Shown here: positions 1,339 through 21,401 of the stretch, in pieces
Position numbering within the stretch: the first letter of the stretch is position 1
How the letters are laid out: each line of letters opens with the position of its first letter
Origin: Candidatus Omnitrophota bacterium
GTDB lineage: Bacteria > Omnitrophota > Gorgyraeia > 1-14-0-20-64-10
Length of the DNA stretch: 64,000 bases
Direction of reading: 5' to 3'
Assembly: GCA_023818695.1 (NCBI GenBank)
Contig: JAMWCF010000001.1
Coordinates: 339,306 to 403,305 of the forward strand
Position numbers and translations under genes: made by a program
Notes under the pieces: generated by a model
What the model was told of the DNA's origin: nothing
The model's input: only the letters and a program-made list of their open reading frames with translations
The model's database searches: none

Positions 1339-1340
1339 GC

Positions 1341-2417
1341 ATGCAACCGATCTGCGACATCGTGATCCCGATTTGGAACCAGCCGGAGCTGACCGGTCGA
1401 TGCCTCGAAAGCATCCTGGCCGCCACCCTGGAGCCGGTTCGCTTGATCCTCATCGACAACGGCAGCGAACCGCCGACCAGGGAGCTGCTGGACCGCTTCT
1501 GCGCCTCCTCACGGGTTCAGACAACGCTGATCCGCAATGACGTGAATCTGGGGTTTATCAAGGCGGTCAACCAGGGAATCCAGGCGGCGCAGGCCCCCTG
1601 GATCTGCCTTCTCAACAACGACACCGTCGTCACGCAGGGGTGGCTCACGGAGATGCTCAAAGCGGCCGACCGGATCCCGAACGTGGGGCTGATCAACCCG
1701 ACCAGCAACTCCCTGGGATTCCGGCCCGGAAAGATGCCGCTGGAAGAGTACGCGCAGAATCTGCGGCGGTTCTCCGGCCAAACAACGGAGCTGACGGTGG
1801 CGCTCGGATTCTGCCTGCTGGCCAAAAAATCGGTTTTCGACCAGGTTGGCCTCCTGGATGAATCGTTCGGAATGGGTTACTTCGAAGACGACGACCTGTC
1901 GCGCCGAGTCCGGCGGGCGGGATTCACGAACGTAAGGGCCTGCGGTTCTTACGTCTATCATGAAGAGAAGGGATCCTTCCGCCATCTCAAAGATTCCAAC
2001 CGCTCTTTCGATGAGAACAGGCGCCTTTTCGAGAAAAAGTGGGGACGGCGGCTGCGGATCCTCTGGACCTACTACGGTCCGCAGCTGCCCGGGCCGTTCC
2101 CTGAAAAGACCGCGCTGCGCCTTCTCCAGGAAGGGCACTGGATCACCCTGATGGCTCCCGCCGGAGCGGTGCCTTCGGATCTGTCGTCGCATGCCCAGCT
2201 GATCTGGCGGCAAATCGACGGTTCCCGCTGGCGTCTCCACGCAACATGGCGGCTGCTGACAAAACGGAAAAAGCCGTTTCACATGGCCATCAGCTATGAC
2301 CCGGTATGGTCGGCTTGGGTTCAGCGGCTCAAACTCCTGCACCGAGCGGCCCTTCAGAAAAACCCTTCTGAGGAGGAGATCCTCCGGCAATGCAGGGAGC
2401 TGTCCCATGTCTCCTAA
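1341..2417 (+). CDS. Family 2 glycosyltransferase with about 110-aa C-terminal extension
   Basis: ATG at 1341, 2 nt after the upstream stop. Motifs DIVIPIWNQ, LILIDNGS, LLNNDTVV and GYFEDDDLSRR (DxD region). The 459-1340 part of the long ORF overlaps the SDR gene out of frame. Confidence 0.9.
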   Translation: MQPICDIVIPIWNQPELTGRCLESILAATLEPVRLILIDNGSEPPTRELLDRFCASSRVQTTLIRNDVNLGFIKAVNQGIQAAQAPWICLLNNDTVVTQGWLTEMLKAADRIPNVGLINPTSNSLGFRPGKMPLEEYAQNLRRFSGQTTELTVALGFCLLAKKSVFDQVGLLDESFGMGYFEDDDLSRRVRRAGFTNVRACGSYVYHEEKGSFRHLKDSNRSFDENRRLFEKKWGRRLRILWTYYGPQLPGPFPEKTALRLLQEGHWITLMAPAGAVPSDLSSHAQLIWRQIDGSRWRLHATWRLLTKRKKPFHMAISYDPVWSAWVQRLKLLHRAALQKNPSEEEILRQCRELSHVS

Positions 2418-3468
2418 GATTGAATGCGACATCGTCCTGCTCACCTGGAATCGGGCCGATCTCCTGAAACCCTGCGTCGAGCGGATCCTGCGCTTCACGG
2501 ACGTACCCAGCCGCCTCCTGCTCGTGGACAACGCCAGCACCGAGCCGGAGGCGGTGGAGTACCAGCAGCGGCTGAAGGGCAACGGGACGGTCCAGGTGGA
2601 GGTCATTAGACGCACTCACAACGACGGCTTTTCCAAAGGGATCAATGAGGGACTGCGCCGCGCCACGGCCCCTTGGGTCTGCCTGATGAACAACGACGTT
2701 CTGGTCGCGCAGGGGTGGCTCTCCGAGATGATCCGGGTAGCGAAGGCCCATCCAGAGATCGGGCTTTTAAACCCGATGAGCAACGAATTCGGTGCCTGGC
2801 CCGGCCGCGGCGAAACCATCGACCAGGCGGGGGAACGGGTCAGGCCGCGCAGGGGAGAATGGACCGAGTTCTGGAACTGCGTGGGCTTCTGCGCGCTTAT
2901 GCCCAGGCAGATCCTGGAAAAGGTGGGGATGCTGGATGAGGAGTTCGGCTTCATGTATTACGAGGATGCTGATTATTCACTGCGGGTCCGCCAGGCCGGG
3001 TACTGCTGCGGCATCGCGCTCGGAGCGTACGCCTACCACATCGGCAGCGCCACCATGAGCAGGAACCCGGACAAGGAGAGACTTTTCGAAGCCAACAAGG
3101 AACTGTTCCGAAAAAAATGGGGGCTGCCCCGGTCCGAAAGGATCGCCTGGCTCATGCCGCAAGGGCACAACCATTTCGACGACTCTCTGAAGCAAAGGGA
3201 ACAGATCCGTTTTCTGGCGAACCAGGATCACATCGTCTGGGTTTACTGCACCCCTTACAACAAATCGGCGGTGCCCCGGCACCTGAACGTTTTCTGCGAG
3301 GTCCTGCCGGCGCCGGTCTGCGTGCCGGTGGCCCTCTTGAAAATCCTGCTGAAGAAAAAAGGGTTCCAGCGGCTCATCCTCTCATCGGACAAACAACCGA
3401 GCTCGTGGATGCACTGGGTCGGCCGGATCACAAAAACGCGTGTGGAAACCCCTCCATCCCATGTCTGA
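2407..3468 (+). CDS. Family 2 glycosyltransferase, paralog of the preceding gene
   Basis: ATG 2407 overlaps the upstream gene by 11 nt. Motifs DIVLLTWNR, LLLVDNAS, LMNNDVLV and MYYEDADYSLR are colinear with the 1341-2417 product. Confidence 0.9.
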   Translation: MSPKIECDIVLLTWNRADLLKPCVERILRFTDVPSRLLLVDNASTEPEAVEYQQRLKGNGTVQVEVIRRTHNDGFSKGINEGLRRATAPWVCLMNNDVLVAQGWLSEMIRVAKAHPEIGLLNPMSNEFGAWPGRGETIDQAGERVRPRRGEWTEFWNCVGFCALMPRQILEKVGMLDEEFGFMYYEDADYSLRVRQAGYCCGIALGAYAYHIGSATMSRNPDKERLFEANKELFRKKWGLPRSERIAWLMPQGHNHFDDSLKQREQIRFLANQDHIVWVYCTPYNKSAVPRHLNVFCEVLPAPVCVPVALLKILLKKKGFQRLILSSDKQPSSWMHWVGRITKTRVETPPSHV

Positions 3469-5038
3469 AAAAATTCCCCTCTCTGTCGTCGTGCTGGCGA
3501 AAAATGAGGCCGGCCGGATCACCGAATGCCTCCGGTCGGTCGCCTGGGCCGACGAACTACTGGTCATCGACGATGACAGTTCCGACAACACCGCGGCGAT
3601 CGCCCAATCGATGGGAGCCACAGTCCTGCGCCGAACAATGGACATCGAGGGCCGCCACCGGAACTGGGCCCATTCCCAGGCCAAACATCCCTGGATCCTG
3701 AGTCTGGATGCCGACGAACGGGTCACCCCCGAACTGGAGCAGGAGATCCGCCGGCTGTTCGCCGACGGCCCCCAGTACGAGATCTACACCATCCCCAGAA
3801 GGAATTACATCGGCACCCGGTGGGTCCAGCACGGGGGATGGTACCCCAGCTCCCAGGTGAAGCTGTTCAAACCGGCCGTCTTTCGATGGGAGGAGACGAC
3901 GGTCCATCCGCGGGCAATCTCCGACCGGCCATGGGGCACCCTTCGAAGCGATATCATCCATTATTCCTACAGGGATCTCGGTGATTTCATCGGAAAACTG
4001 AACAGGCAAACGACCCTCGAAGCCCAGAAATGGGTTCAGGACGGCCGCCGGATGACGGCGGGCAAGGCGCTGTGGAGGACGGGCGACCGGTTCTACCGAA
4101 CCTGGGTGGGGAAGAAGGGAAGGCGGGACGGTTTCTTGGGATACGTCGTCGCCGTCTTCGCCGGCTTTTACCAGTTCTTGAGCTTCGCGAAATACTGGCA
4201 CTGGAAACACCGGGGGAAGGAAAGGCCGCCGGACATCAACGGAACAGGATCGCTCAAGGGGAGAAACCGCAGCAGACTCTCGGCCGTGATCCTGGCCAAG
4301 AACGCCGCGGAGAAGATCAGACCCTGTCTGGAATCGGTCCGGTGGATGGACGAGGTCATTGTCGTGGACGGGGGATCGACCGACGGGACGCAGGAGATCT
4401 GCCGCCGGGCTGAAGCGCGGGTGATCGTGGACGAAACGAGCGACGATTTCGGGAAACTGCGCAATGCCGGGACGGCAGCCGCCAGCGGAGACTGGATACT
4501 GCAGTTGGACGCCGATGAGGTGGTCATGCCGGACTTCCGGAAATGGCTCGAATCGCTGGCGCCCGAACCCAAACCCTACGCGGCCTACAAGTTCCGGCGG
4601 CGCAATAATTTTCTCGGCCACTGGATGCGTCACGGCGGGTGGGATCACCTCTCGCTGCACCTCTTTCACAGGGGCAGCGCCCGCTACGAGGGCCGGGTCC
4701 ATGAGAAACTGCTGGTGGAAGGAGCCGTGGGAACCCTGCCGGTGGGGGTGGAGCATTATCCCTTCGGCTCCCTGGAGGAATTCATGGAGAGGCAGAACCG
4801 GTACACCCTCCTGGAGGCCCGCCAGATGCTGGAATCGAACCCAACTCCCCCCATGAAAGAGATCTGGCGGCAGACAACCCTCAAACCAGCAAAACTGTTC
4901 TGGAAGCTGTACATTAAAAAGCAGGGGTTCCGGGAGGGAATGATCGGATTCATCTTCTGCGGACTCTTCGCGTTCGTCCATTTCATGAAATGGATCAAAG
5001 TGTGGGAAATGACTTATGCCAAAAGCGAACCGGTGTAA
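3461..5038 (+). CDS. Tandem double GT2 glycosyltransferase (two WaaE/KdtX-like domains in one polypeptide)
   Basis: Domain 1 has LSVVVLAKNEA, LVIDDDSSDNT, LSLDADE and HYSYRD. Domain 2 (from about nt 4274) has LSAVILAKNAA, IVVDGGSTDGT, LQLDADE and HYPFGS. ATG 3461 overlaps the upstream stop; a GTG at 3440 is an alternative start. Confidence 0.85.
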   Translation: MSEKIPLSVVVLAKNEAGRITECLRSVAWADELLVIDDDSSDNTAAIAQSMGATVLRRTMDIEGRHRNWAHSQAKHPWILSLDADERVTPELEQEIRRLFADGPQYEIYTIPRRNYIGTRWVQHGGWYPSSQVKLFKPAVFRWEETTVHPRAISDRPWGTLRSDIIHYSYRDLGDFIGKLNRQTTLEAQKWVQDGRRMTAGKALWRTGDRFYRTWVGKKGRRDGFLGYVVAVFAGFYQFLSFAKYWHWKHRGKERPPDINGTGSLKGRNRSRLSAVILAKNAAEKIRPCLESVRWMDEVIVVDGGSTDGTQEICRRAEARVIVDETSDDFGKLRNAGTAAASGDWILQLDADEVVMPDFRKWLESLAPEPKPYAAYKFRRRNNFLGHWMRHGGWDHLSLHLFHRGSARYEGRVHEKLLVEGAVGTLPVGVEHYPFGSLEEFMERQNRYTLLEARQMLESNPTPPMKEIWRQTTLKPAKLFWKLYIKKQGFREGMIGFIFCGLFAFVHFMKWIKVWEMTYAKSEPV

Positions 5039-5627
5039 AAAGCGGGCCGTTTTCCTCGATAGAGATGGGGTCATCAATCTACCTCCCAAACACCGGTTCA
5101 TCAGACATTGGGATGAGTTCCGGTTCATCCCGGGGACCCTTGCCGCCATCCGGCGGATGACCGTCCGGAAGATCGCGCTGGTGATCATCTCCAACCAGTC
5201 CGGCGTGGGTCGCCGGATCATGAGCCGGGCCCGGCTGGAAGAGATCCACCGCCGGATGATGGCTGCCGTCCGCCGACACGGCGGAAAGATCCTGGCGGCC
5301 TACTACTGCACCCACCATCCGGACCGGCGCTGCGGATGCCGGAAGCCCAAAACAGGGATGCTCACAAAAGCCGCGCGTGAACACGGAATCGATCTGAACC
5401 GATCGATCGTTGTCGGGGACAGGGAAACCGACATTCTGATGGCCCATGCAGCCGGCTGCCGCAGCGCCCTGGTCCTTTCCGGCAAACACGATAGGAAAAG
5501 CGCCAGCCGACTCGCCGTCCGTCCGGACAAAATCTTCCCGGACCTGTCCAGGACCGTCCCCTGGATACTCAAGGAAATGCAAAAGAAACCAAGCGCCGCC
5601 ATCCCCACTCCGGGGAGGCCTGCTTGA
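5016..5627 (+). CDS. gmhB: D-glycero-D-manno-heptose 1,7-bisphosphate phosphatase-like HAD phosphatase
   Basis: HAD motif I FLDRDGVIN; SNQSGVGRR; Zn-type CTHHPDRRCGCRKPKTGM; VGDRETD. Confidence 0.8.
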   Translation: MPKANRCKKRAVFLDRDGVINLPPKHRFIRHWDEFRFIPGTLAAIRRMTVRKIALVIISNQSGVGRRIMSRARLEEIHRRMMAAVRRHGGKILAAYYCTHHPDRRCGCRKPKTGMLTKAAREHGIDLNRSIVVGDRETDILMAHAAGCRSALVLSGKHDRKSASRLAVRPDKIFPDLSRTVPWILKEMQKKPSAAIPTPGRPA

Positions 5628-5637
5628 GGAGGCTTTG

Positions 5638-6750
5638 ATGCGGATCCTTCTCCTGCATGTGCCGGCCGGCGCGGGGCATCAACGGGCCTGCGAAGCAATC
5701 GCGGCCGCCTTCCATGAAAGGGGGCTGCAGATCGACGTCACGGTCAAAGACGCTCTCATCGGAGGCAACCGCATCTACCGGTGGGCGTTCACGAAGGGGT
5801 ATATCCGGCTGATCCATTCGTTCCCTTTTCTGTGGGGGATCGCCTATTACCTGACCGACATCCGGCCCTTGAACGGATTGATGCAGCGGCTTCACCGCTT
5901 GAGCAACGCCATGCACGGCAGCCGTCTCTCATCCTACCTGATCGAAAAGAAACCGGACGTCATCATCGGAACCCATTTCTTCCCAATGGAGGTGGCCGGC
6001 TGGCTTAAGTCGAGGGGAAAGATCACGAGCCGGCTTATCACGGTGGTAACCGATTACCAGCCGCACGCCCTGTGGGCCGCGCCTGGCATCGACACCTACG
6101 TCGTCGCCTCTCCCGAAGCGGGAGAAGAGTTGAGAAAGCGGGGGATCCCTCCGGACAAAATCAAACTGATCGGCATACCGGTCGATCCTAAATTTTCGTT
6201 CAACGGCACCCGTCCGGAGCTGGTCAAGAAACTCGGCTTGAAAGAGGGGACCTTCACCGTGCTGGTTGGCTCCGGTGGAGCGGGGACCGGTCCGGTGGTT
6301 GCACTGGTCAAGGCGCTGTGCGAATCCCAGGAACCGGTCCAGATGCTGGTTGTCGCCGGCTCCAACACCTCCCTCTTCGAAAAACTGGTCAGGATGAAAC
6401 CGTCCCTGCGGCACCCGGTGCATGTCTACGGCTTCATCAATAATATGGACGAGCTGATGGAGATCGCCGACCTGGTCGTCTCGAAACCGGGAGGGCTCAC
6501 CTGCACCGAAGCGCTGGCCAAACAGGTGCCCCTGGTGCTGGTCGCCCCCATCCCCGGCCAGGAAACGAACAACGCAAAAACGATGGTCTCCATGGGGGTG
6601 GCGGTCTGGGCGCGGAACGTCCAAGCGGCGGCCGGCTGGGTCCAGAAATTGCGGAACAACCGGCCGCTCCTGGAGGAGATGCGTCAAAAAGCGAAGGAAC
6701 AGGCCTGTCCGGACGCAGCGGCCCGGATCACCCGCCTGGTGATGCCATGA
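5638..6750 (+). CDS. MGDG-synthase-like / diacylglycerol glycosyltransferase (GT28 family)
   Basis: ATG 5638 is preceded by GAGGAGG. N-terminal MRILLLHVPAGAGHQRA and C-terminal SKPGGLTCTEALAKQVP...PIPGQE motifs are typical of the UgtP/MGDG synthase family. Confidence 0.75.
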   Translation: MRILLLHVPAGAGHQRACEAIAAAFHERGLQIDVTVKDALIGGNRIYRWAFTKGYIRLIHSFPFLWGIAYYLTDIRPLNGLMQRLHRLSNAMHGSRLSSYLIEKKPDVIIGTHFFPMEVAGWLKSRGKITSRLITVVTDYQPHALWAAPGIDTYVVASPEAGEELRKRGIPPDKIKLIGIPVDPKFSFNGTRPELVKKLGLKEGTFTVLVGSGGAGTGPVVALVKALCESQEPVQMLVVAGSNTSLFEKLVRMKPSLRHPVHVYGFINNMDELMEIADLVVSKPGGLTCTEALAKQVPLVLVAPIPGQETNNAKTMVSMGVAVWARNVQAAAGWVQKLRNNRPLLEEMRQKAKEQACPDAAARITRLVMP

Positions 6751-7427
6751 GCATGAACCGGCAGGAGCTTATCACGCTCATCGAACAGGGAAAACGGTTT
6801 TTGGAATCCCAGAAACGGCTCGGTATCGAGTGGATTGGCTTTCGCTGGGATGCCGCGGCGGGAAAAAGCAAAGCGGAGATCCTGGAACCGATCCGCTTCA
6901 AAGCGCTCGCGTGCCGCGCCTGCACGCTGGCCAAGGAACGCCGCTCCGTGGTCTGGGGGGAAGGGTCGCTGGACGCCCCGGTGGTCTTCGTCGGGGAGGG
7001 GCCGGGACGGGACGAAGATGAACAGGGCAGACCCTTCGTCGGCCGGGCCGGGGAACTCCTCAATAAAATGATCAAGGCGATGGGATTCCAGAGGGAACAG
7101 GTCTACATCGCCAACATCGTCAAATGCCGCCCCCCGATGAACAGAGTCCCGGAACCGGACGAGGTCGCCGCCTGCCACCCGTTTCTGGAGGCGCAGCTGA
7201 CCGTCATTCAACCGAAGGTGATCTGCGCCCTCGGCCGGACCGCCGCGAACAACCTCCTTGGAATCGACGCCCCCATGGGGATGCTGCGGGGCCGCGTTTT
7301 CGAGTGGCGGGGAATTCCGATGGTGGCGACATTCCATCCGGCCTATCTCCTGCGCAATCCTTCGGCCAAGACGGACGCTTGGAAAGACCTCCAGAAAGTC
7401 ATGAATATTCTGGGAATGAAGAAATGA
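6747..7427 (+). CDS. Uracil-DNA glycosylase, family 4
   Basis: GEGPGRDEDEQGRPFVGRAGELL motif, CRAC...C Fe-S cysteines, HPAYLLR; ATGA overlap with the upstream gene. Confidence 0.9.
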   Translation: MSMNRQELITLIEQGKRFLESQKRLGIEWIGFRWDAAAGKSKAEILEPIRFKALACRACTLAKERRSVVWGEGSLDAPVVFVGEGPGRDEDEQGRPFVGRAGELLNKMIKAMGFQREQVYIANIVKCRPPMNRVPEPDEVAACHPFLEAQLTVIQPKVICALGRTAANNLLGIDAPMGMLRGRVFEWRGIPMVATFHPAYLLRNPSAKTDAWKDLQKVMNILGMKK

Positions 7428-9430: not shown

Positions 9431-9946
9431 ATGGCGACGATCAAGCTGATAAAAGAACCGGCTCCGATCCTCCACCAGCCGGCCGAACGGGTGCGCGAGA
9501 TTTCAAGCGATATCCGGCATCTGATCGATTCAATGATCCAGACGATGCACGCCGCGCGGGGAGTGGGGCTGGCGGCAAACCAGGTGGACTCTCCCTGGTC
9601 CGTCCTGGTGGCCAGCGACAACGGCGTCCCGGGGAAGGAGCTCGTGCTGATCAACCCGGTACTCCTCAAACAATCGGGGCGGCACACCGCCGCGGAGGGC
9701 TGCCTGTCCCTTCCCGGCATTGCCTGCGAAGTAACCCGCGCGGCCAGGGTCACCGTGCAGGGGTGGGACCGTGAAGGCCGCACCGTTACGATCGAGGCGG
9801 AAAACCTCCTGGCGAAGATCCTCCAGCATGAGATCGACCATCTGGCCGGCCGGCTTTTCGTCGACCGCCTCGGCGTCCTGAAACGACGCAAACTCCTGAA
9901 GGAGTACCGGAACCTTCAGAAGGCGCTCGGACAGATCGAGGTCTGA
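9431..9946 (+). CDS. def: Peptide deformylase
   Basis: Motifs GVGLAANQV, EGCLSLPG, HEIDHL. Confidence 0.97.
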   Translation: MATIKLIKEPAPILHQPAERVREISSDIRHLIDSMIQTMHAARGVGLAANQVDSPWSVLVASDNGVPGKELVLINPVLLKQSGRHTAAEGCLSLPGIACEVTRAARVTVQGWDREGRTVTIEAENLLAKILQHEIDHLAGRLFVDRLGVLKRRKLLKEYRNLQKALGQIEV

Positions 9947-10905
9947 TGCGGATCCTCTTCTTCGGCACGCCCGATTTCGCGGTCCCGGCCCTCACCCAGC
10001 TGCTGGAGTCGTCCCACGAGGTGGCCGCCGTCGTCACGCAGCCGGACAGGCCGAAGGGGAGGTCTTCGCGGCCTGTCCCTTCGCCGGCGAAAGAAGCGGC
10101 ACTCAAGGCGTCGCTGCCTGTCCTTCAACCGGAGGACCCGTCGGCAGAACCGTTCCTGAACTCCCTGCGGCCGCTGGCGGCGGAGATCGCTGTGGTGGTG
10201 GCCTACGGGCGGCTCCTCTCGGACGAACTTCTGGCCTCTTTCCCGAAAGGGGCGGTGAACCTGCACCCCTCTCTTCTTCCCAAATACCGGGGAGCCGCCC
10301 CCATCCAGTGGGCGCTGATCCGTGGTGAAAAGGAAACCGGAGTCACCATCTTCCAGCTTGACCGCCGTCTGGATCACGGTCCCATTCTTTTGCAGGTTCA
10401 TCACCCGATCGATCCGGAGGATGACGCCGTCAGCTTAAGCGGCCTGCTGGCCGACCTGGGTGCCCGGACCCTGATCGACGCGCTGGAGAGGGTGGAGGCC
10501 GGAGAAACCCATCCCCACCCGCAGAATGATGAAGAAGCTACTTTCGCGCCACCCCTTCAAAAAGGGGACGGTCTGCTGGATTGGACACAGGACTGTCTGT
10601 CCGTGCATAACAGGGTCAGGGGGGTCCAGCCCTGGCCCGGCGCCTTTTCTGAAGCGAACGGTAAAATCCTGAAGATCTTCAAAACCACGCCGGACCCGGC
10701 CGCTGCCGGCGGCGCGGAGCCAGGCACGGTCTTGAGCGCCGATCCGAACAAGGGACTCTGGATCCAGACCGGCAAAGGGGCGCTGCGGATCGATCGGCTG
10801 CAGCTCGAGGGGGGCAGGGAGATGGACACCGGTCCCTTTTTAAGGGGACACCCCTTTTTCCGGCCGGGCCTGCGGTTCGCCGCCCGAAGGAGGTCCCATG
10901 CCTGA
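9946..10905 (+). CDS. fmt: Methionyl-tRNA formyltransferase
   Basis: MRILFFGTPDFAV, HPSLLPKYRGAAPIQWALI; def-fmt synteny; 1-nt TGATG overlap. Confidence 0.95.
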   Translation: MRILFFGTPDFAVPALTQLLESSHEVAAVVTQPDRPKGRSSRPVPSPAKEAALKASLPVLQPEDPSAEPFLNSLRPLAAEIAVVVAYGRLLSDELLASFPKGAVNLHPSLLPKYRGAAPIQWALIRGEKETGVTIFQLDRRLDHGPILLQVHHPIDPEDDAVSLSGLLADLGARTLIDALERVEAGETHPHPQNDEEATFAPPLQKGDGLLDWTQDCLSVHNRVRGVQPWPGAFSEANGKILKIFKTTPDPAAAGGAEPGTVLSADPNKGLWIQTGKGALRIDRLQLEGGREMDTGPFLRGHPFFRPGLRFAARRRSHA

Positions 10906-11986
10906 ACTCCGCAAGGACCCTCTCACGAACCGCTGGGTCATCATCTCCACCGAGAGGGCCAAACGGCCCGACGAATTCCTGGAGATCACGCCCGATCAGG
11001 ATGCGGCGGCTCTGGAGGAATGTCCTTTCTGCGCCGGCAACGAAATCAAGACGGCTCCTGAAATCACGGCATTAAGACCCGCCGGCGGGGCCCCCAACAG
11101 CCCCGGCTGGAGCGTGAGGGTGATCCCATCCGTCGCGCCGGTCCTGCGGATCGAGGGCTCTCTGGAGCAGAAGTCGGATGGGGTCCACAGCGCGGTTTCC
11201 GGCATCGGGGCGCACGAGCTGGTGATCGAAACGCCGCACCACATCCGGTCCCTCTGGAACCTCCCCGATGAGCAGATCCGGTCGGTCATCCAGGCCTACA
11301 TCCAAAGGATCGTGGATCTGGAGAGGGACCCCCGGTTCAAATATGTCATGCTCTTCAAAAATTACGGCAAGGCGGCCGGAGAAGGGCGGTTCCGGCACAG
11401 CCGTTCCCAGCTCATCGCCCTGCCGATCACCCCCATTCGCCTGCGGGATGAACTGGGAGGATCCCGCCTTTACTTTCAGATGAAACAGCGCTGCATCTTC
11501 TGCGACATCATCCGCCAGGAATCCGAGACGCAGGAAAGGATCGCGGCCGAGACTGCCTCTTTCGTGGCGCTGGCGCCGTTTGCCTCTCGGTTTCCGTTCG
11601 AGGTCTGGATTCTCCCGAAGAACCATTCGTCAGACTTCACGAGGATGCCGCCTCCCCAGCAATCCGACCTGGCCACCATCCTGAAGATAACACTCGGGAA
11701 GCTCTGCGCTGCCCTCGGCGATCCGCCGCTGAACTACATCCTTCATACCGCTCCCTTCAGGCGTCCCCACCCGGGCTACTGGCAGACCATCGACAACGAT
11801 TTCCACTGGCACCTGGAGATCATGCCGCGCCTGACCCGGGTGGCCGGTTTCGAGTGGGGATCCGGGTTTTACATCAACCCGATCACGCCGGAGGAGACGG
11901 CCCGCTTCCTGCGCCGGGCCGTTTTCCCTCTGCCCCCGGAACCCCGTCCACAGCAGCCGGTGACGGAGGAGGGGAAAAATGGCTGA
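10898..11986 (+). CDS. GalT-like HIT-superfamily nucleotidyltransferase paralog with His-to-Arg change at the nucleophile position
   Basis: CPFCAGNE, GAHELVIETP, RHSRSQLIALP (HSR instead of HxH) and HWHLEIMPRLT..AGFEWGSGFYINP. Confidence 0.8.
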   Translation: MPELRKDPLTNRWVIISTERAKRPDEFLEITPDQDAAALEECPFCAGNEIKTAPEITALRPAGGAPNSPGWSVRVIPSVAPVLRIEGSLEQKSDGVHSAVSGIGAHELVIETPHHIRSLWNLPDEQIRSVIQAYIQRIVDLERDPRFKYVMLFKNYGKAAGEGRFRHSRSQLIALPITPIRLRDELGGSRLYFQMKQRCIFCDIIRQESETQERIAAETASFVALAPFASRFPFEVWILPKNHSSDFTRMPPPQQSDLATILKITLGKLCAALGDPPLNYILHTAPFRRPHPGYWQTIDNDFHWHLEIMPRLTRVAGFEWGSGFYINPITPEETARFLRRAVFPLPPEPRPQQPVTEEGKNG

Positions 11987-12977
11987 AATCCGCAGGGACC
12001 AGAGCACCCACCGATGGGTCATCATCTCAACGGACAACCCGATGGACCCCGAAGACTTTGAACCGGGCCAGAAGAAAACACGGATCGATTCATGCCCTTT
12101 CTGTCCAGGGAACGAATCGATGACGCCGGGCGATATCTTCTCCATCCCTTCGAAAACCGGCGGATGGCAGCTACGGGTCTTCCCGAACAAATTCCCAGCC
12201 CTCCGGATCGAGGGGGAGCTGAACAAGACGGGAACCGGCATCTACGACATGATGAACGGCATCGGGGCGCACGAGGTGATCGTGGAAACGCCGGACCATG
12301 CCAAAGATCTGGTGGATCTTCTGCCCGACGAGATGGATCTGGTGATTCGGGCCTACCGGGACCGGATCCGGGACCTGCGCCGCGACTCCCGTTTCCGCTA
12401 TATTCTGGTCTTCAAAAACGAGGGAGCCCCGGCCGGGGCCTCCGTCTCCCATTCCCATTCCCAACTGATCGCCCTTCCGATCATCCCCAAGCGGGTGAGC
12501 GAGGAGATCTGGTACGCTGATGCCCACTTCGAGCAGACCAGGCGCTGCATTTTCTGCGACACCATCCAGCAGGAACTTCGGGAGAAAACGCGTGTGGTGC
12601 TGGAAACCCCGCAAATCCTGGTCTACGCCCCCTACGCCTCCCGCTTCCCATTCGAGCTGTGGGTGCTGCCCAAGGAGCACCTGGCCCATTTCGCCGATTC
12701 TCCAGAACCGCTGCTGCTGGAGGCGGGCGACGCCCTCCGGAAAACGCTGGAGAAGCTGCGGACCCTCCTGCGACATCCTTCCTACAATTTTCTCATCCAC
12801 ACATCCCCTCTTGCGGCGCCGACGCCGGCAGGGTATCATTGGCATATTGAGCTGATGCCGCGTCTGACCCATGTGGCCGGATTTGAATGGGGATCTGGGT
12901 TTTACATCAACCCCACGCCCCCCGAATCAGCCGCCCGTTTCCTGCGCGAAGTCAAACCAAGTCTAAGCGGCGGGTAA
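11979..12977 (+). CDS. GalT-like HIT-superfamily hexose-1-phosphate nucleotidyltransferase / phosphorylase (intact HxHxQ)
   Basis: CPFCPGNE, GAHEVIVETP, SHSHSQLIALP and HWHIELMPRLT..AGFEWGSGFYINP; 8-nt overlap with the upstream paralog. Confidence 0.85.
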   Translation: MAEIRRDQSTHRWVIISTDNPMDPEDFEPGQKKTRIDSCPFCPGNESMTPGDIFSIPSKTGGWQLRVFPNKFPALRIEGELNKTGTGIYDMMNGIGAHEVIVETPDHAKDLVDLLPDEMDLVIRAYRDRIRDLRRDSRFRYILVFKNEGAPAGASVSHSHSQLIALPIIPKRVSEEIWYADAHFEQTRRCIFCDTIQQELREKTRVVLETPQILVYAPYASRFPFELWVLPKEHLAHFADSPEPLLLEAGDALRKTLEKLRTLLRHPSYNFLIHTSPLAAPTPAGYHWHIELMPRLTHVAGFEWGSGFYINPTPPESAARFLREVKPSLSGG

Positions 12978-13005
12978 TTTTTTAATTTTCATCGGAGAAG
13001 AATAA

Positions 13006-15265
<2,260 letters not shown>

Positions 15266-15269
<4 letters not shown>

Positions 15270-16060
15270 AAAGACGGCCGCTGGTGGCGGGCAACTGGAA
15301 GATGAACGGGACGATCCAGGAAGCCCGGCAGCTCGTGGAGGGGATCCTCCGGGCATCCCGCAAGCTGGCCGAGGTCGAAATCGTGCTCTTCCCCCCCTTC
15401 ACGGCGCTTGCCGAGGTGCGGGACCGGATCCAGGGCTCCCCGCTCCTGCTGGGGGCCCAGAACATGCACTGGGAAGAGAAGGGGGCCTACACCGGCGAGG
15501 TGTCCGGCGGAATGCTTAAGGAGCTCGGCTGCCGTTACGTGATCATCGGACATTCGGAACGGCGGGCCCTCTTCGGGGAAACGGATGAGTCGGTTCAGAA
15601 AAAAATCTCGGCCGTCTTTCGAACCGGCTTGAGCCCCATCCTATGCGTCGGCGAAACCCTCCAGCAGAGGGAAGCGAATCAGACATGGAAGGTCATCGAG
15701 CGCCAGCTTGAGATCGGGCTGGACAAAGCCAAAGCGGCCGACTCGATGAACCGGCTGGTGATCGCCTACGAGCCGGTCTGGGCGATCGGGACCGGCCGCA
15801 ACGCCACCCCCGCGCAGGCGCAGGAGGTGCATGCCCTGATCCGGTCGTGGCTCGACAAAAGATTCGGCAAAACCGAGGCTGATTCGATTCGGATCCAGTA
15901 CGGGGGTTCCGTCAAACCGGACAATGCCGCGGAACTGATGTCGCAGGCGGACGTGGACGGCGCGTTGGTCGGAGGGGCGAGTCTCGACACCACGTCGTTC
16001 ACCGCCATCGCCGAGGCGGCCGCTCTGCAAAGAAAGGGGGCTTCATGCTCTACGGATTGA
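15266..16060 (+). CDS. tpiA: Triosephosphate isomerase
   Basis: [33 protein letters not shown]. Confidence 0.97.
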
Positions 16061-16555: not shown

Positions 16556-18097
16556 ATGGAGCGCCACCTTCCTGCCGTGGGGGACGCCTACGTCAGCGGA
16601 ACTATCGGGGAACCGATCACCCTGATCCCGATCCTGGCATCCGATTCCCCCTCCGCGGAGGTCTGCGGCCTCGTTTACAACGGCCTGGTCAAATACGACA
16701 AGGATCTTGAGCTGATCGGCGACTTGGCCGATCGGTGGGAGATAAGCCCCGACGGCCTGGAAATCCGCTTTTTCCTGCGCAAGGGGATCCGGTGGCACGA
16801 CGGCGTCCCCTTCACCGCGGAAGATGTCGAGTTCACCTATCGGCGCCTGATCGACCCGGCGGTCCCCACCCCTTACCGAGGGGACTTCGAACGGATCGAA
16901 TCGGTGAAGGTGCTCGACCCCTGGACATTGCTGGTCCGCTACAAGGAACCGTTCGCGCCGGCCCTCTCCTCCTGGGGGATGGGGATCCTCCCCAAACATC
17001 TGCTGGAGGGGGCGGACCTGATGCGAACACCTTTGAGGGAGAAGCCGGTGGGAACCGGCCCCTTCCGGTTCCATCGATGGGTCCGGGGAGACCGGGTGGA
17101 ACTGAAGGCCAACCCGGACTACTTTGAAGGCCGGCCGTTCCTGGACTGGATCGTCCTGCGGGTCATCCCGGACCAAGGAACCATTTTTCTCGAACTCCAA
17201 GTGGAGGGGCTCGACTCGGCGGGGCTGACCCCTCTGCAGTTTTCCCGATCCTCCAACAACCCCCGTTTTTCGGATCTGTTTCATAAATTCCATTATCCGA
17301 GCTTCGGCTACACCTATCTGGGCTACAATCTGCGGGACCCGAAATTCCGGGACCCGCTCGTCCGGCAGGCCCTCAATGCCGCGATCAACAAGGAGGAGAT
17401 CATCCGAGGGGTGCTTTTGGGTTACGGCCGGGAAGCGACCGGTCCCTATCCGCAGGAATCCTGGGCCTTCGATCCAGCCATCCGACCCGCCCCTTACGAT
17501 CCCCGGCGGGCCAAGGAGCTGCTGGCCCAGGCCGGCTGGAAAGATGCCGACGGCGACGGCATTCTGGAAAAAGAGGGAATCCCTTTCGAATTCACAATCC
17601 TAACCAACCAGGGGAATCTCACCAGAGAACTCGCCGCGCAGATCATCCAGCAGCGGCTGGCCGCCATCGGTATCCGGGTGAAGATCTGGATCCTGGAGTG
17701 GTCCGCGCTCCTGCACGAGTTTATCGACAAGGGGAAGTTCGAAGCGATCTTGATGGGATGGAGTCTCTCGAGGGATCCGGATCAGTTCGATCTTTGGCAC
17801 TCCTCGAAGATAAAGCCGGGGGAGTTCAACTTCATCGGCTATTCCAACCCCGAGGCCGACCGGCTGCTGGAAGAGGGCCGCAGGACCTTCGACCCCCTCC
17901 GGCGCCAAGAGATCTACCGCCGCTTCCACCGGCTCCTTTACGAGGACCAGCCGGTCTGCTTCCTCTACGTCCCGGAAGCGTTGCCGGCGGTTCACCGGCG
18001 TTTTCAGGAGGTGGAGGTTTCCGCCATCGGTGTGGGCTATAATCTGATCCATTGGTACGTACCGTCCAACAAGCAGCGATACCGGATGGAGCCATGA
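16556..18097 (+). CDS. ABC transporter substrate-binding protein, family 5 (OppA/DppA-like); N-terminus probably extends upstream
   Basis: Typical SBP_bac_5 sequence (WHDGVPFTAEDV, GTGPFRF, ANPDYFEG). 16556 is the first ATG, but the in-frame upstream codons encode a signal-peptide-like segment (see findings). Confidence 0.85.
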   Translation: MERHLPAVGDAYVSGTIGEPITLIPILASDSPSAEVCGLVYNGLVKYDKDLELIGDLADRWEISPDGLEIRFFLRKGIRWHDGVPFTAEDVEFTYRRLIDPAVPTPYRGDFERIESVKVLDPWTLLVRYKEPFAPALSSWGMGILPKHLLEGADLMRTPLREKPVGTGPFRFHRWVRGDRVELKANPDYFEGRPFLDWIVLRVIPDQGTIFLELQVEGLDSAGLTPLQFSRSSNNPRFSDLFHKFHYPSFGYTYLGYNLRDPKFRDPLVRQALNAAINKEEIIRGVLLGYGREATGPYPQESWAFDPAIRPAPYDPRRAKELLAQAGWKDADGDGILEKEGIPFEFTILTNQGNLTRELAAQIIQQRLAAIGIRVKIWILEWSALLHEFIDKGKFEAILMGWSLSRDPDQFDLWHSSKIKPGEFNFIGYSNPEADRLLEEGRRTFDPLRRQEIYRRFHRLLYEDQPVCFLYVPEALPAVHRRFQEVEVSAIGVGYNLIHWYVPSNKQRYRMEP

Positions 18098-19077
18098 GCC
18101 GATATCTCCTTTTTCGCCTGCGGTCGCTGATTCCCGTCTTCTTCGGGATCACGGCCATCAGCTTCGCCGTGATGCACCTGGCGCCGGGCAAGCCGACCGA
18201 CTCGATCACCGATCTGAACGTCAAGGTCTCCCTGCAGGCGAAAGAGCAGCTGATCAAGCTCTACGGTCTGGACCGCCCGGTGCATGTGCAGTACCTGGAC
18301 TGGCTCACAAGGATTGTGCGGGGGGACTTCGGCCGCTCCTTCAAAGACGGCAGGCCGGTGTCGGCGAAGATCGCGGAGCGGATCCCGCTGACCCTGCTCC
18401 TGAACGGGCTGGCCCTCTTCTTCATCCTGCTGCTGTCGGTCCCCCTGGGGGTCGTCAGCGCGGCGAGGGAGGGGTCTGTCTTCGACCACCTGGTGACTCT
18501 CTTTGTCTTCATCGGCTTCGCCCTGCCAACGTTCTGGGTGGCCCTGCTGGCGGTCGATTTCTTCGGAGTGAAGATGGGCTGGCTACCTGTCTCGGGCCTT
18601 TTTTCGCTGGGGGCCGACCGTCTGCCGCTCCAGGAACGGATCGCGGACGCGGCCCGGCACCTGGTCCTGCCGGTCGGCGTCATTGTCTTCGGCGGACTGG
18701 CCGGTTATTCCCGCTACGTCCGTTCCGGCATGCTGGAGGTGCTCCAGCAGGATTACATCCGGACCGCCTACGCCAAAGGATTAAAAAGATCGGAGGTCCT
18801 CTACAAGCACGCCCTGCGCAACGCGCTGCTGCCGATGATCACGGTCCTGGGGCTTTCGGTCCCGGGGCTGATCAGCGGCTCGGTGATCTTTGAGTCGATC
18901 TTCGCCCTGCCCGGGATGGGGCGCCTCTTCTATGAGGCGGTCATGGGCCGGGACGGGCCGGTGATCATGGGAATCCTGGTGATCGGGGCGGGGCTGACCC
19001 TGCTTGGGAACCTAATAGCCGACATCGCCTATGCGTACGCCGACCCGAGAATCCGGCATGGGGAGCCGGCCTCATGA
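18094..19077 (+). CDS. ABC transporter permease (DppB/OppB-like)
   Basis: ATG 18094 forms ATGA with the SBP stop. MSRYLLFRLRSLIPVFFGITAISF, YIRTAYAKGL, multiple TM segments. Confidence 0.9.
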   Translation: MSRYLLFRLRSLIPVFFGITAISFAVMHLAPGKPTDSITDLNVKVSLQAKEQLIKLYGLDRPVHVQYLDWLTRIVRGDFGRSFKDGRPVSAKIAERIPLTLLLNGLALFFILLLSVPLGVVSAAREGSVFDHLVTLFVFIGFALPTFWVALLAVDFFGVKMGWLPVSGLFSLGADRLPLQERIADAARHLVLPVGVIVFGGLAGYSRYVRSGMLEVLQQDYIRTAYAKGLKRSEVLYKHALRNALLPMITVLGLSVPGLISGSVIFESIFALPGMGRLFYEAVMGRDGPVIMGILVIGAGLTLLGNLIADIAYAYADPRIRHGEPAS

Positions 19078-19880
19078 AGAAGCGCTGCGCCTCCGGAATG
19101 TTTCTCGGAAGCATCATGCTGTTATCCATCCTCTTTGGCGCCGCGCTGTTCGCCCCGCAACTGACCGGAGCGGACCCCCGGGAAATCCGGCTGGAAGAGG
19201 CCCTGCTGGGTCCCTCCTGGCAGCACCCGTTCGGGACCGACCAGCTGGGGAGGGACGTCTACGCCCGGATGCTTTACGGAGCGAGGGTCTCCATCGCTGT
19301 CGGCTTCGTGGCGGTGGGAATCGCCACCCTTCTGGGAGTCCTGATCGGATCGGTTTCCGGCTATCTGGGAGGGTGGATTGACACCGTGCTGATGCGCTTC
19401 ACCGACATCATGCTCTGTTTTCCGACCCTCTTTCTAATCCTTGCGGCGATCGCTTTTCTGGGGCCCAGCATCTTCAACATCATGGCGATCATTGGTCTGA
19501 CCGGCTGGATGGGGGTCGCCCGTCTGGTCCGGGCCGAAATACTGACCTTGAAGGAGAGGGAATTCGTGCAGGCGGCCCGCGTCATCGGCTGCTCCCATCC
19601 GCGGATCATCCTCCGGCATCTGCTGCCTAACGCCATGGCGCCGGTGATTGTCAGCGCCACACTGGGAATCGGCTCGGCGGTGCTGATCGAATCGGCCTTG
19701 AGTTTTCTGGGGATCGGCGTCCAGCCGCCAGACCCCAGCTGGGGAAATATCCTGGCGGAAGGAAAATCGACGCTGGGGGTGGCTCCCTGGCTGATCGTGA
19801 TCCCTGGGATCGCCATCTGTTGGATCGTTCTGGGATTCAACATGCTCGGAGAAGCGCTGCGCCAGCGATGGAGGAGCTGA
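19074..19880 (+). CDS. ABC transporter permease (DppC/OppC-like)
   Basis: PFGTDQLGRDV, EFVQAARVIGCS, TM-rich; ATGA overlap. Confidence 0.9.
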   Translation: MKKRCASGMFLGSIMLLSILFGAALFAPQLTGADPREIRLEEALLGPSWQHPFGTDQLGRDVYARMLYGARVSIAVGFVAVGIATLLGVLIGSVSGYLGGWIDTVLMRFTDIMLCFPTLFLILAAIAFLGPSIFNIMAIIGLTGWMGVARLVRAEILTLKEREFVQAARVIGCSHPRIILRHLLPNAMAPVIVSATLGIGSAVLIESALSFLGIGVQPPDPSWGNILAEGKSTLGVAPWLIVIPGIAICWIVLGFNMLGEALRQRWRS

Positions 19881-19885
19881 CCGCC

Positions 19886-20704
19886 ATGGAAGAACCGTCC
19901 ATGATCCGGCAGAAACTGAAAAAAGCGGCCCGCAAAATTCGGCGGGCGATCCTGCGGGATGAACCGGGCTACTACGACATGTTCATGAACAAAGGGGAAC
20001 ATTTTTTCGGCCGGCTCTATCTTCATGAGATCACCCGAATCCTCGAAGAGGAAAAGAGAAACCCACCCCTGAAAATCCTGGACGCTGGCTGTCAGTCCGG
20101 CCGTCTGACGGTCCCCCTGGCGGCGGCTGGCCACGACGTCACCGGCGTGGACACCTCCGACCTGGCCCTTCGGCGGGCTAGGAAACACGCGGCCGAGATG
20201 AAAACCTCTTTCCGGCCGGTCCGGGCCGACCTCTCCTCGTGGCTGCCGAAACAGCCGCAGGGGTTTTTCGACGCCGTCCTCTGCACCGAGGTCCTTTACA
20301 TGAGGGAAAACCACCTGGAGCTGCTGGAGGGGCTCCTGAAGGTCTTGAAACCGGGCGGACTGTGCTTCATCTCCCACCGGCCGACCGGCTACTACCTGGC
20401 CGAGGCCTTCCGGAAAGGGGACAAGCAGGCGATTGAAACCCTGACCGGCGCCTCCGAGGGAATTCTTTTCGGCTCTTATTACAACTGGCAGAGCAGGGAA
20501 GAGCTCCGAACACTCTACAGCCGCTTTCCCGTGGAGGTGTTGAGCATCGTTCCGATCGGCTTCCTCTCCTGGGCAGTGATCGATCCCAGCGGCCTGGAGC
20601 CAGAAATGGAGGAGCTCCTTTTCCAGGTGGAAACCGCCCCGGAACATCGGCAGAACGACTGCGGCCGGTATCTGCTGGTTTCGGCGAGGAAGAAAACGTC
20701 ATGA
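19886..20704 (+). CDS. Class I SAM-dependent methyltransferase
   Basis: Motif I ILDAGCQSGR; post-I acidic residue GVD; LKPGG. The start is ambiguous (19868, 19886 or 19901); 19886 is the first ATG after the upstream stop. Confidence 0.75.
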   Translation: MEEPSMIRQKLKKAARKIRRAILRDEPGYYDMFMNKGEHFFGRLYLHEITRILEEEKRNPPLKILDAGCQSGRLTVPLAAAGHDVTGVDTSDLALRRARKHAAEMKTSFRPVRADLSSWLPKQPQGFFDAVLCTEVLYMRENHLELLEGLLKVLKPGGLCFISHRPTGYYLAEAFRKGDKQAIETLTGASEGILFGSYYNWQSREELRTLYSRFPVEVLSIVPIGFLSWAVIDPSGLEPEMEELLFQVETAPEHRQNDCGRYLLVSARKKTS

Positions 20705-21399: not shown

Positions 21400-21401
21400 A
21401 A

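Follow-up and report, generated by a model that had tools for sequence, protein, structure and literature searches.

Two adjacent genes in a 64,000-nucleotide stretch of DNA from a Candidatus Omnitrophota bacterium (hereafter the window) probably encode the subunits of an obligate asymmetric heterodimer with the fold of class I GalT (galactose-1-phosphate uridylyltransferase) and ADP-glucose phosphorylase. We refer to residues that a chain contributes to its own active site as cis elements and to those that it extends into the site of its partner as trans elements. In the product of the upstream gene (A) the cis catalytic elements are degenerate and the trans elements intact, and in the product of the downstream gene (B) the cis catalytic elements are intact and the trans-acting arm at the N-terminus is degenerate. 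The losses in the two proteins converge on one site, as would be expected of an obligate heterodimer in which one site is live and the other dead. The dimer, its single active site, and its substrate are predictions from sequence comparison, and the cis and trans roles are taken from the literature. The first-pass annotation of this DNA had proposed an obligate heterodimer with a pseudo-enzyme subunit, and the complementary losses favor such a complex. The genes and the elements discussed below are as follows.

10898..10905, + strand: 8-nucleotide (nt) overlap of fmt and A, ATGCCTGA; fmt (9946-10905) was identified by Pfam
10898..11986, + strand: gene A (upstream type), a GalT-like/ADP-glucose-phosphorylase-like subunit of 362 amino acids (aa)
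10955..10969, + strand: R20-A-K-R23-P24 arm of A, a putative trans-acting phosphate-binding arm by analogy with R28/R31 of E. coli GalT and R48/R51 of human GALT; fully retained
11126..11146, + strand: P77-S-V-A-P-V-L83 of A, degenerate counterpart of the nucleotide-binding motif PNKFPAL (equivalent to N97-D98-F99-P-A-L of human GALT)
11396..11410, + strand: H167-S-R169-S-Q171 of A, with the Zn-ligand His and the Gln retained and the nucleophile replaced by Arg (CGT, 11402-11404)
11846..11878, + strand: G317-FEWGSGFYI-N327 loop of A (equivalent to the 334-346 loop of human GALT), a putative trans-acting hexose-binding loop that by analogy would complete the site of B
11965..11974, + strand: Shine-Dalgarno-like sequence GGAGGAGGGG, within the A coding sequence and 4 nt 5' of the B ATG
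11979..11986, + strand: 8-nt overlap of A and B, ATGGCTGA, with the start codon of B within the end of A
11979..12977, + strand: gene B (downstream type), a GalT-like subunit of 332 aa
12033..12050, + strand: D19-N-P-M-D-P24 of B, degenerate counterpart of the RAKRP arm with both Arg residues gone (N20, D23)
12183..12203, + strand: P69-N70-K71-F72-P-A-L75 of B, intact nucleotide-binding motif
12450..12464, + strand: H158-S-H160-S-Q162 of B, intact HxHxQ motif with the nucleophile His160 encoded by CAT (12456-12458)
12879..12911, + strand: G301-FEWGSGFYI-N311 loop of B, retained even though the site it would face is the crippled one

The genes fmt, A, and B are chained together by two overlaps, both 8 nt long and of the ATGnnTGA type. 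The position of the B start codon inside A suggests that the two genes are translationally coupled. A and B are colinear and 46% identical (BLASTP E = 7e-102), and both contain the motifs CPFC(A/P)GNE, GAHE(L/V), HWH(L/I)E(I/L)MPRLT, and AGFEWGSGFYINP. Our coordinates and alignments reproduce what the first-pass annotation had read from the letters, namely the 8-nt overlap, the colinear copies with common motifs, the intact HxHxQ of the downstream copy, the Arg codon at the nucleophile position of the upstream copy, and the retention there of the first His. Its description of the two genes as an active and an inactive copy fits A, which lacks the nucleophile, and needs revision for B, which is not simply intact because its trans-acting Arg arm is gone.

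Complementary degeneration of the paired proteins

Alignment columns were compared over five groups: upstream proteins with Arg at the nucleophile position (Arg-type), upstream proteins with His there (His-type), downstream proteins, single-copy homologues from Nitrospirota, and other single-copy homologues. Nearly all family-invariant residues are kept in both paralogues, including both metal sites, the KN.G..AG loop, the Gln of HxHxQ, and the C-terminal GFEWGSGFYIN loop. The two exceptions are reciprocal, and they are the NKF motif in upstream proteins and the N-terminal arm in downstream proteins. Among 31 Omnitrophota pairs, every upstream gene has the ERAKRP arm and every one has lost NKF, Arg-type and His-type alike, with S-V/I-A/S in its place. 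Every downstream gene of these pairs has NKFPAL and HxHxQ, and the first arm Arg survives in only one of the 31. The second arm Arg is lost in about two thirds of downstream genes. The arm region of B aligns without gaps and between identical flanks.

The same division is seen in larger sets of homologues. For A-type proteins, the first arm Arg is present in 120/120 and the second in 119/120, while the NKF Lys is found in 2/120, the Phe in 0/120, and the nucleophile His in 13/120. The 30 closest B-type homologues have neither the first (0/30) nor the second arm Arg (0/30), and they retain the NKF Lys (29/30, with one Arg), the Phe (30/30), and the nucleophile His (30/30). Over all 120 matches to B, the Lys is present in 118, Phe or Tyr in 120, and the nucleophile His in 120. 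Seventy-five more distant B matches that have the first arm Arg keep the Lys, Phe, and His too, and the named members of this set come from other phyla (Bryobacteraceae, Calditrichia, Latescibacteria). The Lys and Phe/Tyr of NKF occur in nearly all downstream, Nitrospirota, and other single-copy proteins, and 47 of 48 single-copy homologues from the genome scan described below keep the first arm Arg. The GFEWGSGFYIN loop is conserved at 100% in upstream genes and at 94-97% in downstream genes.

Two further relations between the paired proteins were considered and rejected. A charge swap between Arg169 of A and an acidic arm in B is at odds with the many downstream arms that have Lys or Arg at the second position beside an upstream Arg169. 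Covariation of Lys at the first downstream arm position with an upstream His is seen in one clade, and it fails in two loci (L116 and L118) where a downstream DKPR.P arm accompanies an upstream HARSQ. A residue-rule classification of 150 representative homologues by presence or absence of cis and trans elements was too noisy outside close clades to serve as more than a lead, because the NKF Lys is not universal (the Arabidopsis protein At5g18200 has Leu).

Location of the affected residues in solved GalT structures

Papers on the human and E. coli GalT enzymes underlie the assignment of cis and trans elements. In the homodimers formed by class I GalTs and by At5g18200, the neighboring subunit is needed for a complete pocket (bioRxiv 10.64898/2026.09.13.751320). 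In human GALT, the glucose-1-phosphate pocket is formed by K334-Q346 of one chain and by Q188 and N173 of the other, and Arg48 is supplied by the chain opposite Gln188 (PMC5081055). Molecular dynamics identifies stable inter-subunit contacts between R48(A) and F99(B), H47(A) and P100(B), R51(B) and D98(A), and G338(A) and N173(B), where the letters denote the human chains (PMC8513031, PMC8513022). Uridine monophosphate is contacted by N97, D98, and H186, and glucose-1-phosphate by R48 and R51 (PMC8513031, PMC8513022). N97, D98, and F99 constitute a nucleotide-binding motif (PMC5081055, PMC8513022), and human N97-D98-F99-P-A-L corresponds to N70-K71-F72-P-A-L of B. Arg20 and Arg23 of A align with R28 and R31 in the HRAKRP sequence of the E. 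coli enzyme and with the arginines of ARAKRP in At5g18200, where the arm motif itself is identical.

Arginine at the nucleophile position

Where B has SHSHSQLIALP, A reads RHSRSQLIALP. Arg169 of A and His160 of B both align with the second His of SHSHSQ in At5g18200 (H186), which places the Arg at the nucleophile position as the first-pass annotation had proposed. PDB entry 2H39 is the H186G mutant of At5g18200 (SHSGSQ), with Gly at the nucleophile in the same column as Arg169. The first His of HxHxQ, which is kept in both A and B, is a Zn ligand in every class I GalT structure and also in At5g18200 (bioRxiv 10.64898/2026.09.13.751320). Most upstream genes also encode an extra basic residue (Lys or Arg) directly before this Zn-ligand His.

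Among the 120 best homologues of A (58-69% identity), the nucleophile column contains Arg in 102, His in 13, Lys in 3, Cys in 1, and Leu in 1, and all six Arg codons (CGC, CGT, CGG, CGA, AGA, and AGG) are used across upstream lineages. Pairwise ratios of nonsynonymous to synonymous substitution rates (dN/dS) are 0.04-0.10 for A-type genes and 0.02-0.31 for B-type genes. The mean column entropy of Arg-type upstream proteins (0.89 bits) is lower than that of downstream proteins (1.00 bits). Because dN/dS is low, the open reading frame (ORF) is intact, the Arg is conserved, and the entropy is below that of the downstream proteins, A is evidently a selected, functional protein. The alternative that the Arg codon is a sequencing or assembly error, or that A is a decaying pseudogene of this one genome, draws on the single transition that separates CGT from CAT and on the origin of the sequence in a metagenome-assembled genome (MAG). 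Recovery of the Arg from many independent assemblies and in six codons, together with the intact ORF, low dN/dS, and low entropy of A-type genes, leaves this alternative virtually no chance, and we take the comparative data to refute it. A read error at 11403, which the first-pass annotation had flagged for inspection, is in practice excluded by more than 100 orthologues. The same pair in orthologous loci across Omnitrophota likewise argues that the Arg is no strain-specific lesion.

The nucleophile position has changed repeatedly. His survives at three places in the upstream clade, namely in L005 (HTHSE), in L006-L010, L014, and L015 (HAHSQ), and in L022 (HTHSQ), and a neighbor-joining (NJ) tree indicates that the His/Arg state changed at least three times within this clade. 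Some His-type A lineages are already without the Lys and Phe of NKF, which marks the loss of the His as a late and repeated step. Since CAY to CGY is a single transition, this recurrence is weak evidence for selection of the Arg, and its retention through synonymous codon turnover is the stronger indication. One upstream gene (L003:5995-7047) has Cys (TGT) in the nucleophile column (HSCSQ), again one transition from CGT. Further upstream lineages have Glu in place of the Gln (HTHSE) or Lys at the nucleophile column.

Family, fold, and nearest relatives

Both proteins match the GalT families of Pfam. A scores 36.8 bits against PF01087 (cutoff 22.1) and 37.0 bits against PF02744 (cutoff 29.2). 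B scores 54.9 bits against PF01087, 26.8 bits against PF02744, which is slightly under the cutoff, and 36.7 bits against the histidine triad (HIT) family PF01230. DUF4921 and DUF4931_N are matched by both proteins as well. Neither passes the GalT equivalog model NF008724 (119.9 bits for A and 131.5 bits for B against a cutoff of 448), and with TIGR00209 (cutoff 102.1) A falls below at 99.7 bits and B lies marginally above at 108.3 bits. By NCBIfam criteria, A and B are not GalTs of the Leloir pathway. Neither galK nor galE was found in the surveyed part of the window.

The closest characterized, and also the closest solved, full-length homologue of both proteins is the Arabidopsis ADP-glucose phosphorylase At5g18200 (PDB 1Z84), which aligns end to end with A (E = 6e-74) and B (E = 4e-74) and is found at E = 4e-98 in a profile search. 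E. coli and human GalT are more remote, with phmmer E-values of about 1e-20 and about 22-24% identity to A in Foldseek alignments. An AlphaFold2 monomer model of A has a mean predicted local distance difference test score (pLDDT) of 84.3 and a predicted template modeling score of 0.85. The best Foldseek match of this model is 1Z84 (TMt 0.91), and 1HXQ and 5IN3 are fold matches too. The segments of low confidence are the N-terminal arm, residues 83-103, and loop 315-322, and the trans loop has pLDDT <50. Low confidence in these segments of the monomer model is compatible with segments that become ordered by a partner, yet it is no evidence for one.

The Zn-site residues are C42, C45, H106, and H167 in A and C39, C42, H98, and H158 in B, and these columns are invariant in all groups compared. 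The second His of HxHxQ is present in B and absent from A, and the N-terminal RAKRP arm is present in A (R20, R23) and absent from B. Their fold places A and B in the class I GalT-like branch of the HIT superfamily, of which A is not a catalytic member. A is 100% identical to a protein from a Candidatus Omnitrophica MAG at NCBI. A-type proteins are currently labeled "DUF4921," "DUF4931," or "galactose-1-phosphate uridylyltransferase," and B-type proteins are labeled GalT. If the heterodimer forms, these labels miss a two-gene enzyme.

Distribution and phylogeny of the pair

A genome scan with each species represented by one genome yielded 80 loci. The Omnitrophota loci that are complete at both ends number 29, and in every one of them the upstream gene is followed by the downstream gene on the same strand. 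In Nitrospirota, Eisenbacteria, Zixibacteria, Acidobacteriota, and other groups, the homologue is single at its locus and has an intact HxHxQ. The order priA-def-fmt-up-dn-gap-pgk-tpiA, where up and dn denote the upstream and downstream genes and glgA lies between gap and pgk in some lineages, is conserved across Omnitrophota (9946-16060 on the + strand of the window; loci L001-L032 and L077). The spacing of the two genes is -8 nt in the clade of the window (L001-L005) and between -1 and +9 nt in most other pairs. Outliers are one locus with a 35-nt overlap and three loci with gaps of 63-113 nt.

In an NJ tree, the upstream and downstream proteins form two separate clades whose internal branching is mirrored. 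Bootstrap analysis (200 replicates, NJ, Kimura distance) recovers the upstream clade in 195/200 replicates and the downstream clade in 173/200. The mirrored clades imply that the pair is no younger than the common ancestor of the sampled Omnitrophota.

A second family and a natural fusion

A second family with the same complementary pattern and the reverse gene order relative to Omnitrophota was first met in a 'Candidatus Ozemobacteraceae' MAG (L069), and about 24 further tandem pairs of this kind occur in metagenomes. Its upstream protein is the one with live cis elements (PN[KR][FY]PAL and HPHSQ), and the arm of this protein reads E-[QKNHG]-x-K-x-P and in no case has the first Arg. In the downstream protein the arm is a perfect ERGKRP, P-D-x-x-P-I-L stands in place of the nucleotide-binding motif, and HxHSH has the Gln replaced by His. 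The two cis-degenerate clades group together in only 2/200 NJ bootstrap replicates, and because of this the origins of the second family and of the Omnitrophota pair look independent.

In this family (L069, L083-L112), the HxHSH of the cis-degenerate subunit corresponds to the His-x-His-x-His triad of the Hint/Fhit hydrolase branch, and the nucleophile His is kept. This Ozemobacteraceae-like subunit might have hydrolase-type chemistry instead of being dead.

In one MAG (L082; GCA_003558915.1, PWOP01000182.1; 4001-5800; P0121), a single gene of 599 aa replaces the pair in the context tyrS-fusion-gap-pgk-tpiA-secG. The part derived from the upstream protein is strongly eroded and consists only of the ERAKRP arm at its N-terminus and of the C-terminal half, which contains GFEWGTGIYIN, and it has lost HxHxQ and has CPFC, NKF, and GAHE deleted. 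A Ser/Lys-rich linker joins it to the part derived from the downstream protein, which is without its own N-terminal arm. The surviving parts are exactly the set of elements of the proposed live site. The fusion is evidence of the Rosetta-stone kind for the putative A:B complex. MAFFT aligns upstream and downstream homologues alike onto the C-terminal part of the fusion. An assembly artifact is unlikely here because the linker is too short to conceal a frameshifted N-terminus of the downstream protein. A divergent Omnitrophota-like pair (L081) shows continued erosion of the upstream cis side, since its upstream gene has HSRSH and has lost even a Zn-ligand His.

Other arrangements were also encountered among the homologues. 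One protein (P0126, 871 aa) consists of two complete GalT-like modules in tandem with HxHxQ in both. At another locus (L119, 171-2779), the gene directly 5' of glgA encodes a homologue with intact cis elements in which the arm and the C-terminal loop have both degenerated. This locus is at a contig edge, and a possible upstream partner would fall outside the sequence.

A proposed heterodimer with one live site

The observations above can be combined into a model for the composite site. One chain would supply the cis set, which consists of the HxHxQ nucleophile motif with its Gln, the N-x-F motif, and the KN..G loop, and the partner chain would supply the trans set, made up of an N-terminal arm (RAKRP) and a C-terminal loop (GFE...N). 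B would provide the full cis set (His160, Gln162, and Asn70-Lys71-Phe72), with the arginines of its own arm lost. A would provide the full trans set (Arg20, Arg23, and loop 317-327), with the nucleophile (now Arg169) and the Lys and Phe lost. An A:B dimer would then contain exactly one fully equipped site, built from the cis elements of B and the trans elements of A, and the reciprocal site would be without a nucleophile, nucleotide-binding residues, and the arginines of the partner. An A:A dimer would have no nucleophile, and a B:B dimer would be without the arm Arg found in essentially every single-copy homologue surveyed. Overlapping and coupled translation of fmt, A, and B would deliver both chains together. 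The model predicts activity only when A and B are present together. It also predicts that Arg20 and Arg23 of A and His160 of B are essential for catalysis and that Arg169 of A and Asn20 and Asp23 of B are dispensable.

A related possibility is that the heterodimer forms and its crippled site has been reused as an allosteric site for a ligand such as a hexose phosphate or phosphate, with Arg169 and the preceding Lys or Arg binding the anion. This is possible, if unlikely. The hexose-phosphate half of the crippled site is conserved, in that K154-N155-x-G157..A160-G161 and Q171 are 100% conserved in Arg-type upstream proteins (the Gln also in 8/9 His-type proteins), and such reuse would account for the retained trans loop of the downstream proteins, for an Arg169 that is held by selection in most homologues instead of drifting, and for the basic residue before the Zn-ligand His. 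The same conservation could however reflect constraints of folding or of the interface, and in some upstream lineages position 169 is occupied by His, Cys, Leu, or Lys, or the Gln is replaced by Glu, which shows that the site tolerates variation. A ligand also cannot be assigned from sequence alone. We consider it rather unlikely that the crippled site is a purpose-built pocket, with Arg169 and the Lys or Arg of A standing in for the nucleotidyl-accepting His and for the arginines of the partner, that senses glucose-1-phosphate, phosphate, or a glycolytic sugar phosphate and thereby gates the live site. If it were, Omnitrophota would have a regulated ADP-glucose phosphorylase that ties glycogen turnover to the co-transcribed gap-pgk-tpiA genes, and the Ozemobacteraceae-like family would have reached the same allosteric solution independently.

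The two proteins might instead not pair at all, with B a self-sufficient homodimer and A a separate homodimer that has changed chemistry or binds a sugar phosphate, the genes being merely co-transcribed. The characterized relatives of this fold are homodimers, some downstream genes keep the second arm Arg, and A has a confidently predicted fold in which both metal sites, the two trans elements, the KN..G loop, and the Gln are retained. Against these points, separate homodimers leave unexplained why downstream proteins have lost an arm Arg that persists in nearly all single-copy proteins and in every A-type protein surveyed, and why the reciprocal losses converge on one composite site. A second, apparently independent lineage repeats the pattern, and one MAG has fused both genes. 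We judge separate homodimers to be very unlikely, and equally so a changed chemistry for a separate A, of which direct non-covalent transfer and hydrolysis would be examples. The first-pass annotation had offered a subunit with changed chemistry beside its heterodimer. This part of its proposal has less support, since A is without the nucleotide-binding Lys and Phe in addition to the nucleophile, and altered nucleotidyl chemistry is for that reason unlikely.

Several observations weigh against an obligate heterodimer with a single live site. The second arm Arg persists in about one third of downstream genes, Lys occupies the first position in some, and a B:B dimer with such residual arm Arg or Lys might retain some activity. 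The trans hexose loop of B remains highly conserved although it would serve only the dead site, and either this loop is structural or the crippled site still binds something. The trans role of the RAKRP arm is extrapolated by analogy from the distantly related E. coli and human enzymes. In a third tandem pair (L121, 443-2578), one copy has HAQSQ (His replaced by Gln) and the arm is degenerate in each of the two copies. The complementary pattern thus does not hold throughout the wider family. All of the trees are neighbor-joining trees. Finally, a GlgC protein encoded in the same window, described below, complicates the direction and role of a putative ADP-glucose phosphorylase reaction.

Likely reaction and link to glycogen metabolism

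The most probable reaction at the live site of the proposed heterodimer is a ping-pong nucleotidyl transfer, mediated by the His, on a nucleoside diphosphate glucose. Specific ADP-glucose chemistry is about evenly balanced between yes and no. Our best guess for the reaction, by analogy with the nearest characterized homologue, is ADP-glucose + inorganic phosphate <-> glucose-1-phosphate + ADP. The role of the pair would be in glycogen metabolism, beside lower glycolysis. Homologues are fused to a GH57 domain (P0144 and P0214; 875 and 858 aa) and to the starch/glycogen synthase GlgA (P0189, 814 aa), and glgA adjoins a single-copy homologue in several phyla and, in several lineages of Omnitrophota, the pair. 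Fusions and neighborhoods of this kind, which tie the family closely to glgA and GH57, suggest that glycogen metabolism in bacteria includes a GalT-like step. Such a step goes unmentioned in a 2024 review of prokaryotic alpha-glucan enzymes.

A bona fide glgC gene is located at 23165-24397 on the + strand, 10 kb 3' of the pair, and its product scores 582 bits against NF001947 (cutoff 470) and 467 bits against TIGR02091 (cutoff 425). The organism accordingly has the classical ADP-glucose route besides the GalT-like pair.

Comparison with known systems

At5g18200 (1Z84, 2H39) shares with A and B the fold of two HIT halves, a Zn site of the type CxxC..H..H, and, in the C-terminal half, the CxxC/His motifs. 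It also has SHSHSQ like B, the ARAKRP arm like A, and a GFE.G.G.YIN loop. Unlike the Omnitrophota pair, it consists of identical chains that each have cis and trans elements, whereas here these elements are split between paralogues and the activity is predicted. E. coli GalT and human GALT are dimers with composite sites between subunits, as proposed for the pair, and have the His nucleophile of HxHxQ, as does B. R28/R31 and the 311-323 loop of the E. coli enzyme (R48/R51 and 334-346 in the human enzyme) act on the site of the partner, and their equivalents in A are R20/R23 and 317-327. These enzymes differ from the pair in being homodimers of the Leloir pathway, and their sequence similarity to it is weak.

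Pairs of active and degenerate paralogues are known from other enzymes. GlgC and GlgD of Firmicutes and the small and large subunits of plant ADP-glucose pyrophosphorylase (AGPase) combine a catalytic subunit with a non-catalytic or weakly catalytic paralogue, usually encoded by adjacent genes. They belong to the pathway in which the pair discussed here is predicted to act, where they supply ADP-glucose for glycogen or starch. The fold of GlgC/GlgD and AGPase (a nucleotidyltransferase domain and a left-handed beta-helix) is unrelated to that of the pair, and their sites are not composite, so that no complementary degeneration arises. The NCBIfam glgD model was listed among the matches in the glgC search.

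A formal parallel to the proposed A:B dimer is found in heterodimeric ATP-binding cassette (ABC) transporters such as TM287/288, TAP1/2, and CFTR, in which two chains form composite sites, one consensus and one degenerate. The degenerate site has Walker B and switch changes in one chain and signature-motif changes in the other. As proposed for A:B, the losses in two chains map to the same site, although the proteins and their chemistry are unrelated. The degenerate site of these transporters still binds ATP and has a regulatory role, and for A:B a bound ligand with a regulatory role is only a hypothesis. In trypanosomatids, S-adenosylmethionine decarboxylase with its prozyme and the deoxyhypusine synthase pair are weakly active enzymes that become fully active only with a dead paralogue. 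These pairs differ from A and B in being eukaryotic, in having other folds, and in not being operon-linked.

Full-text searches of the literature brought up neither a GalT-like or HIT heterodimer in which one subunit is degenerate nor an account of these Omnitrophota genes or of GalT-like genes in the glycogen metabolism of Omnitrophota. Duplication of homodimeric enzymes with shared sites is expected to be able to give rise to asymmetric heterodimers, and clean examples of reciprocal loss are few. In the present case the signature can be read from sequence, where it is phylum-wide, is apparently repeated with the opposite gene order, and reaches its extreme in a fusion without the dead-site parts. 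The pair should be relevant to enzymologists and to the study of how heteromers evolve from homomers.

Other features of the window

An ABC transporter operon of the Opp/Dpp type occupies 16556-23152 on the + strand and encodes a solute-binding protein, two permeases, and two ATPases. It is interrupted between the permeases and the ATPases by genes for an S-adenosylmethionine-dependent methyltransferase (19820-20701) and a polysaccharide deacetylase (20701-21396). At 459-6747 (+ strand), three genes for family-2 glycosyltransferases are followed by a gene (5446-6747) that resembles those for monogalactosyldiacylglycerol synthase and diglucosyl-diacylglycerol synthase. A gene of the uracil-DNA glycosylase superfamily comes next (6747-7424, + strand). 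The longest ORF for priA begins at 7124 (+ strand), and its first 100 aa or so (7124-7427), which abound in Pro, Gly, and Arg, overlap the glycosylase gene. Because the 3'-DNA-binding domain of PriA starts only at residue 109 of this ORF, the true start of priA is probably a Met codon near 7420.

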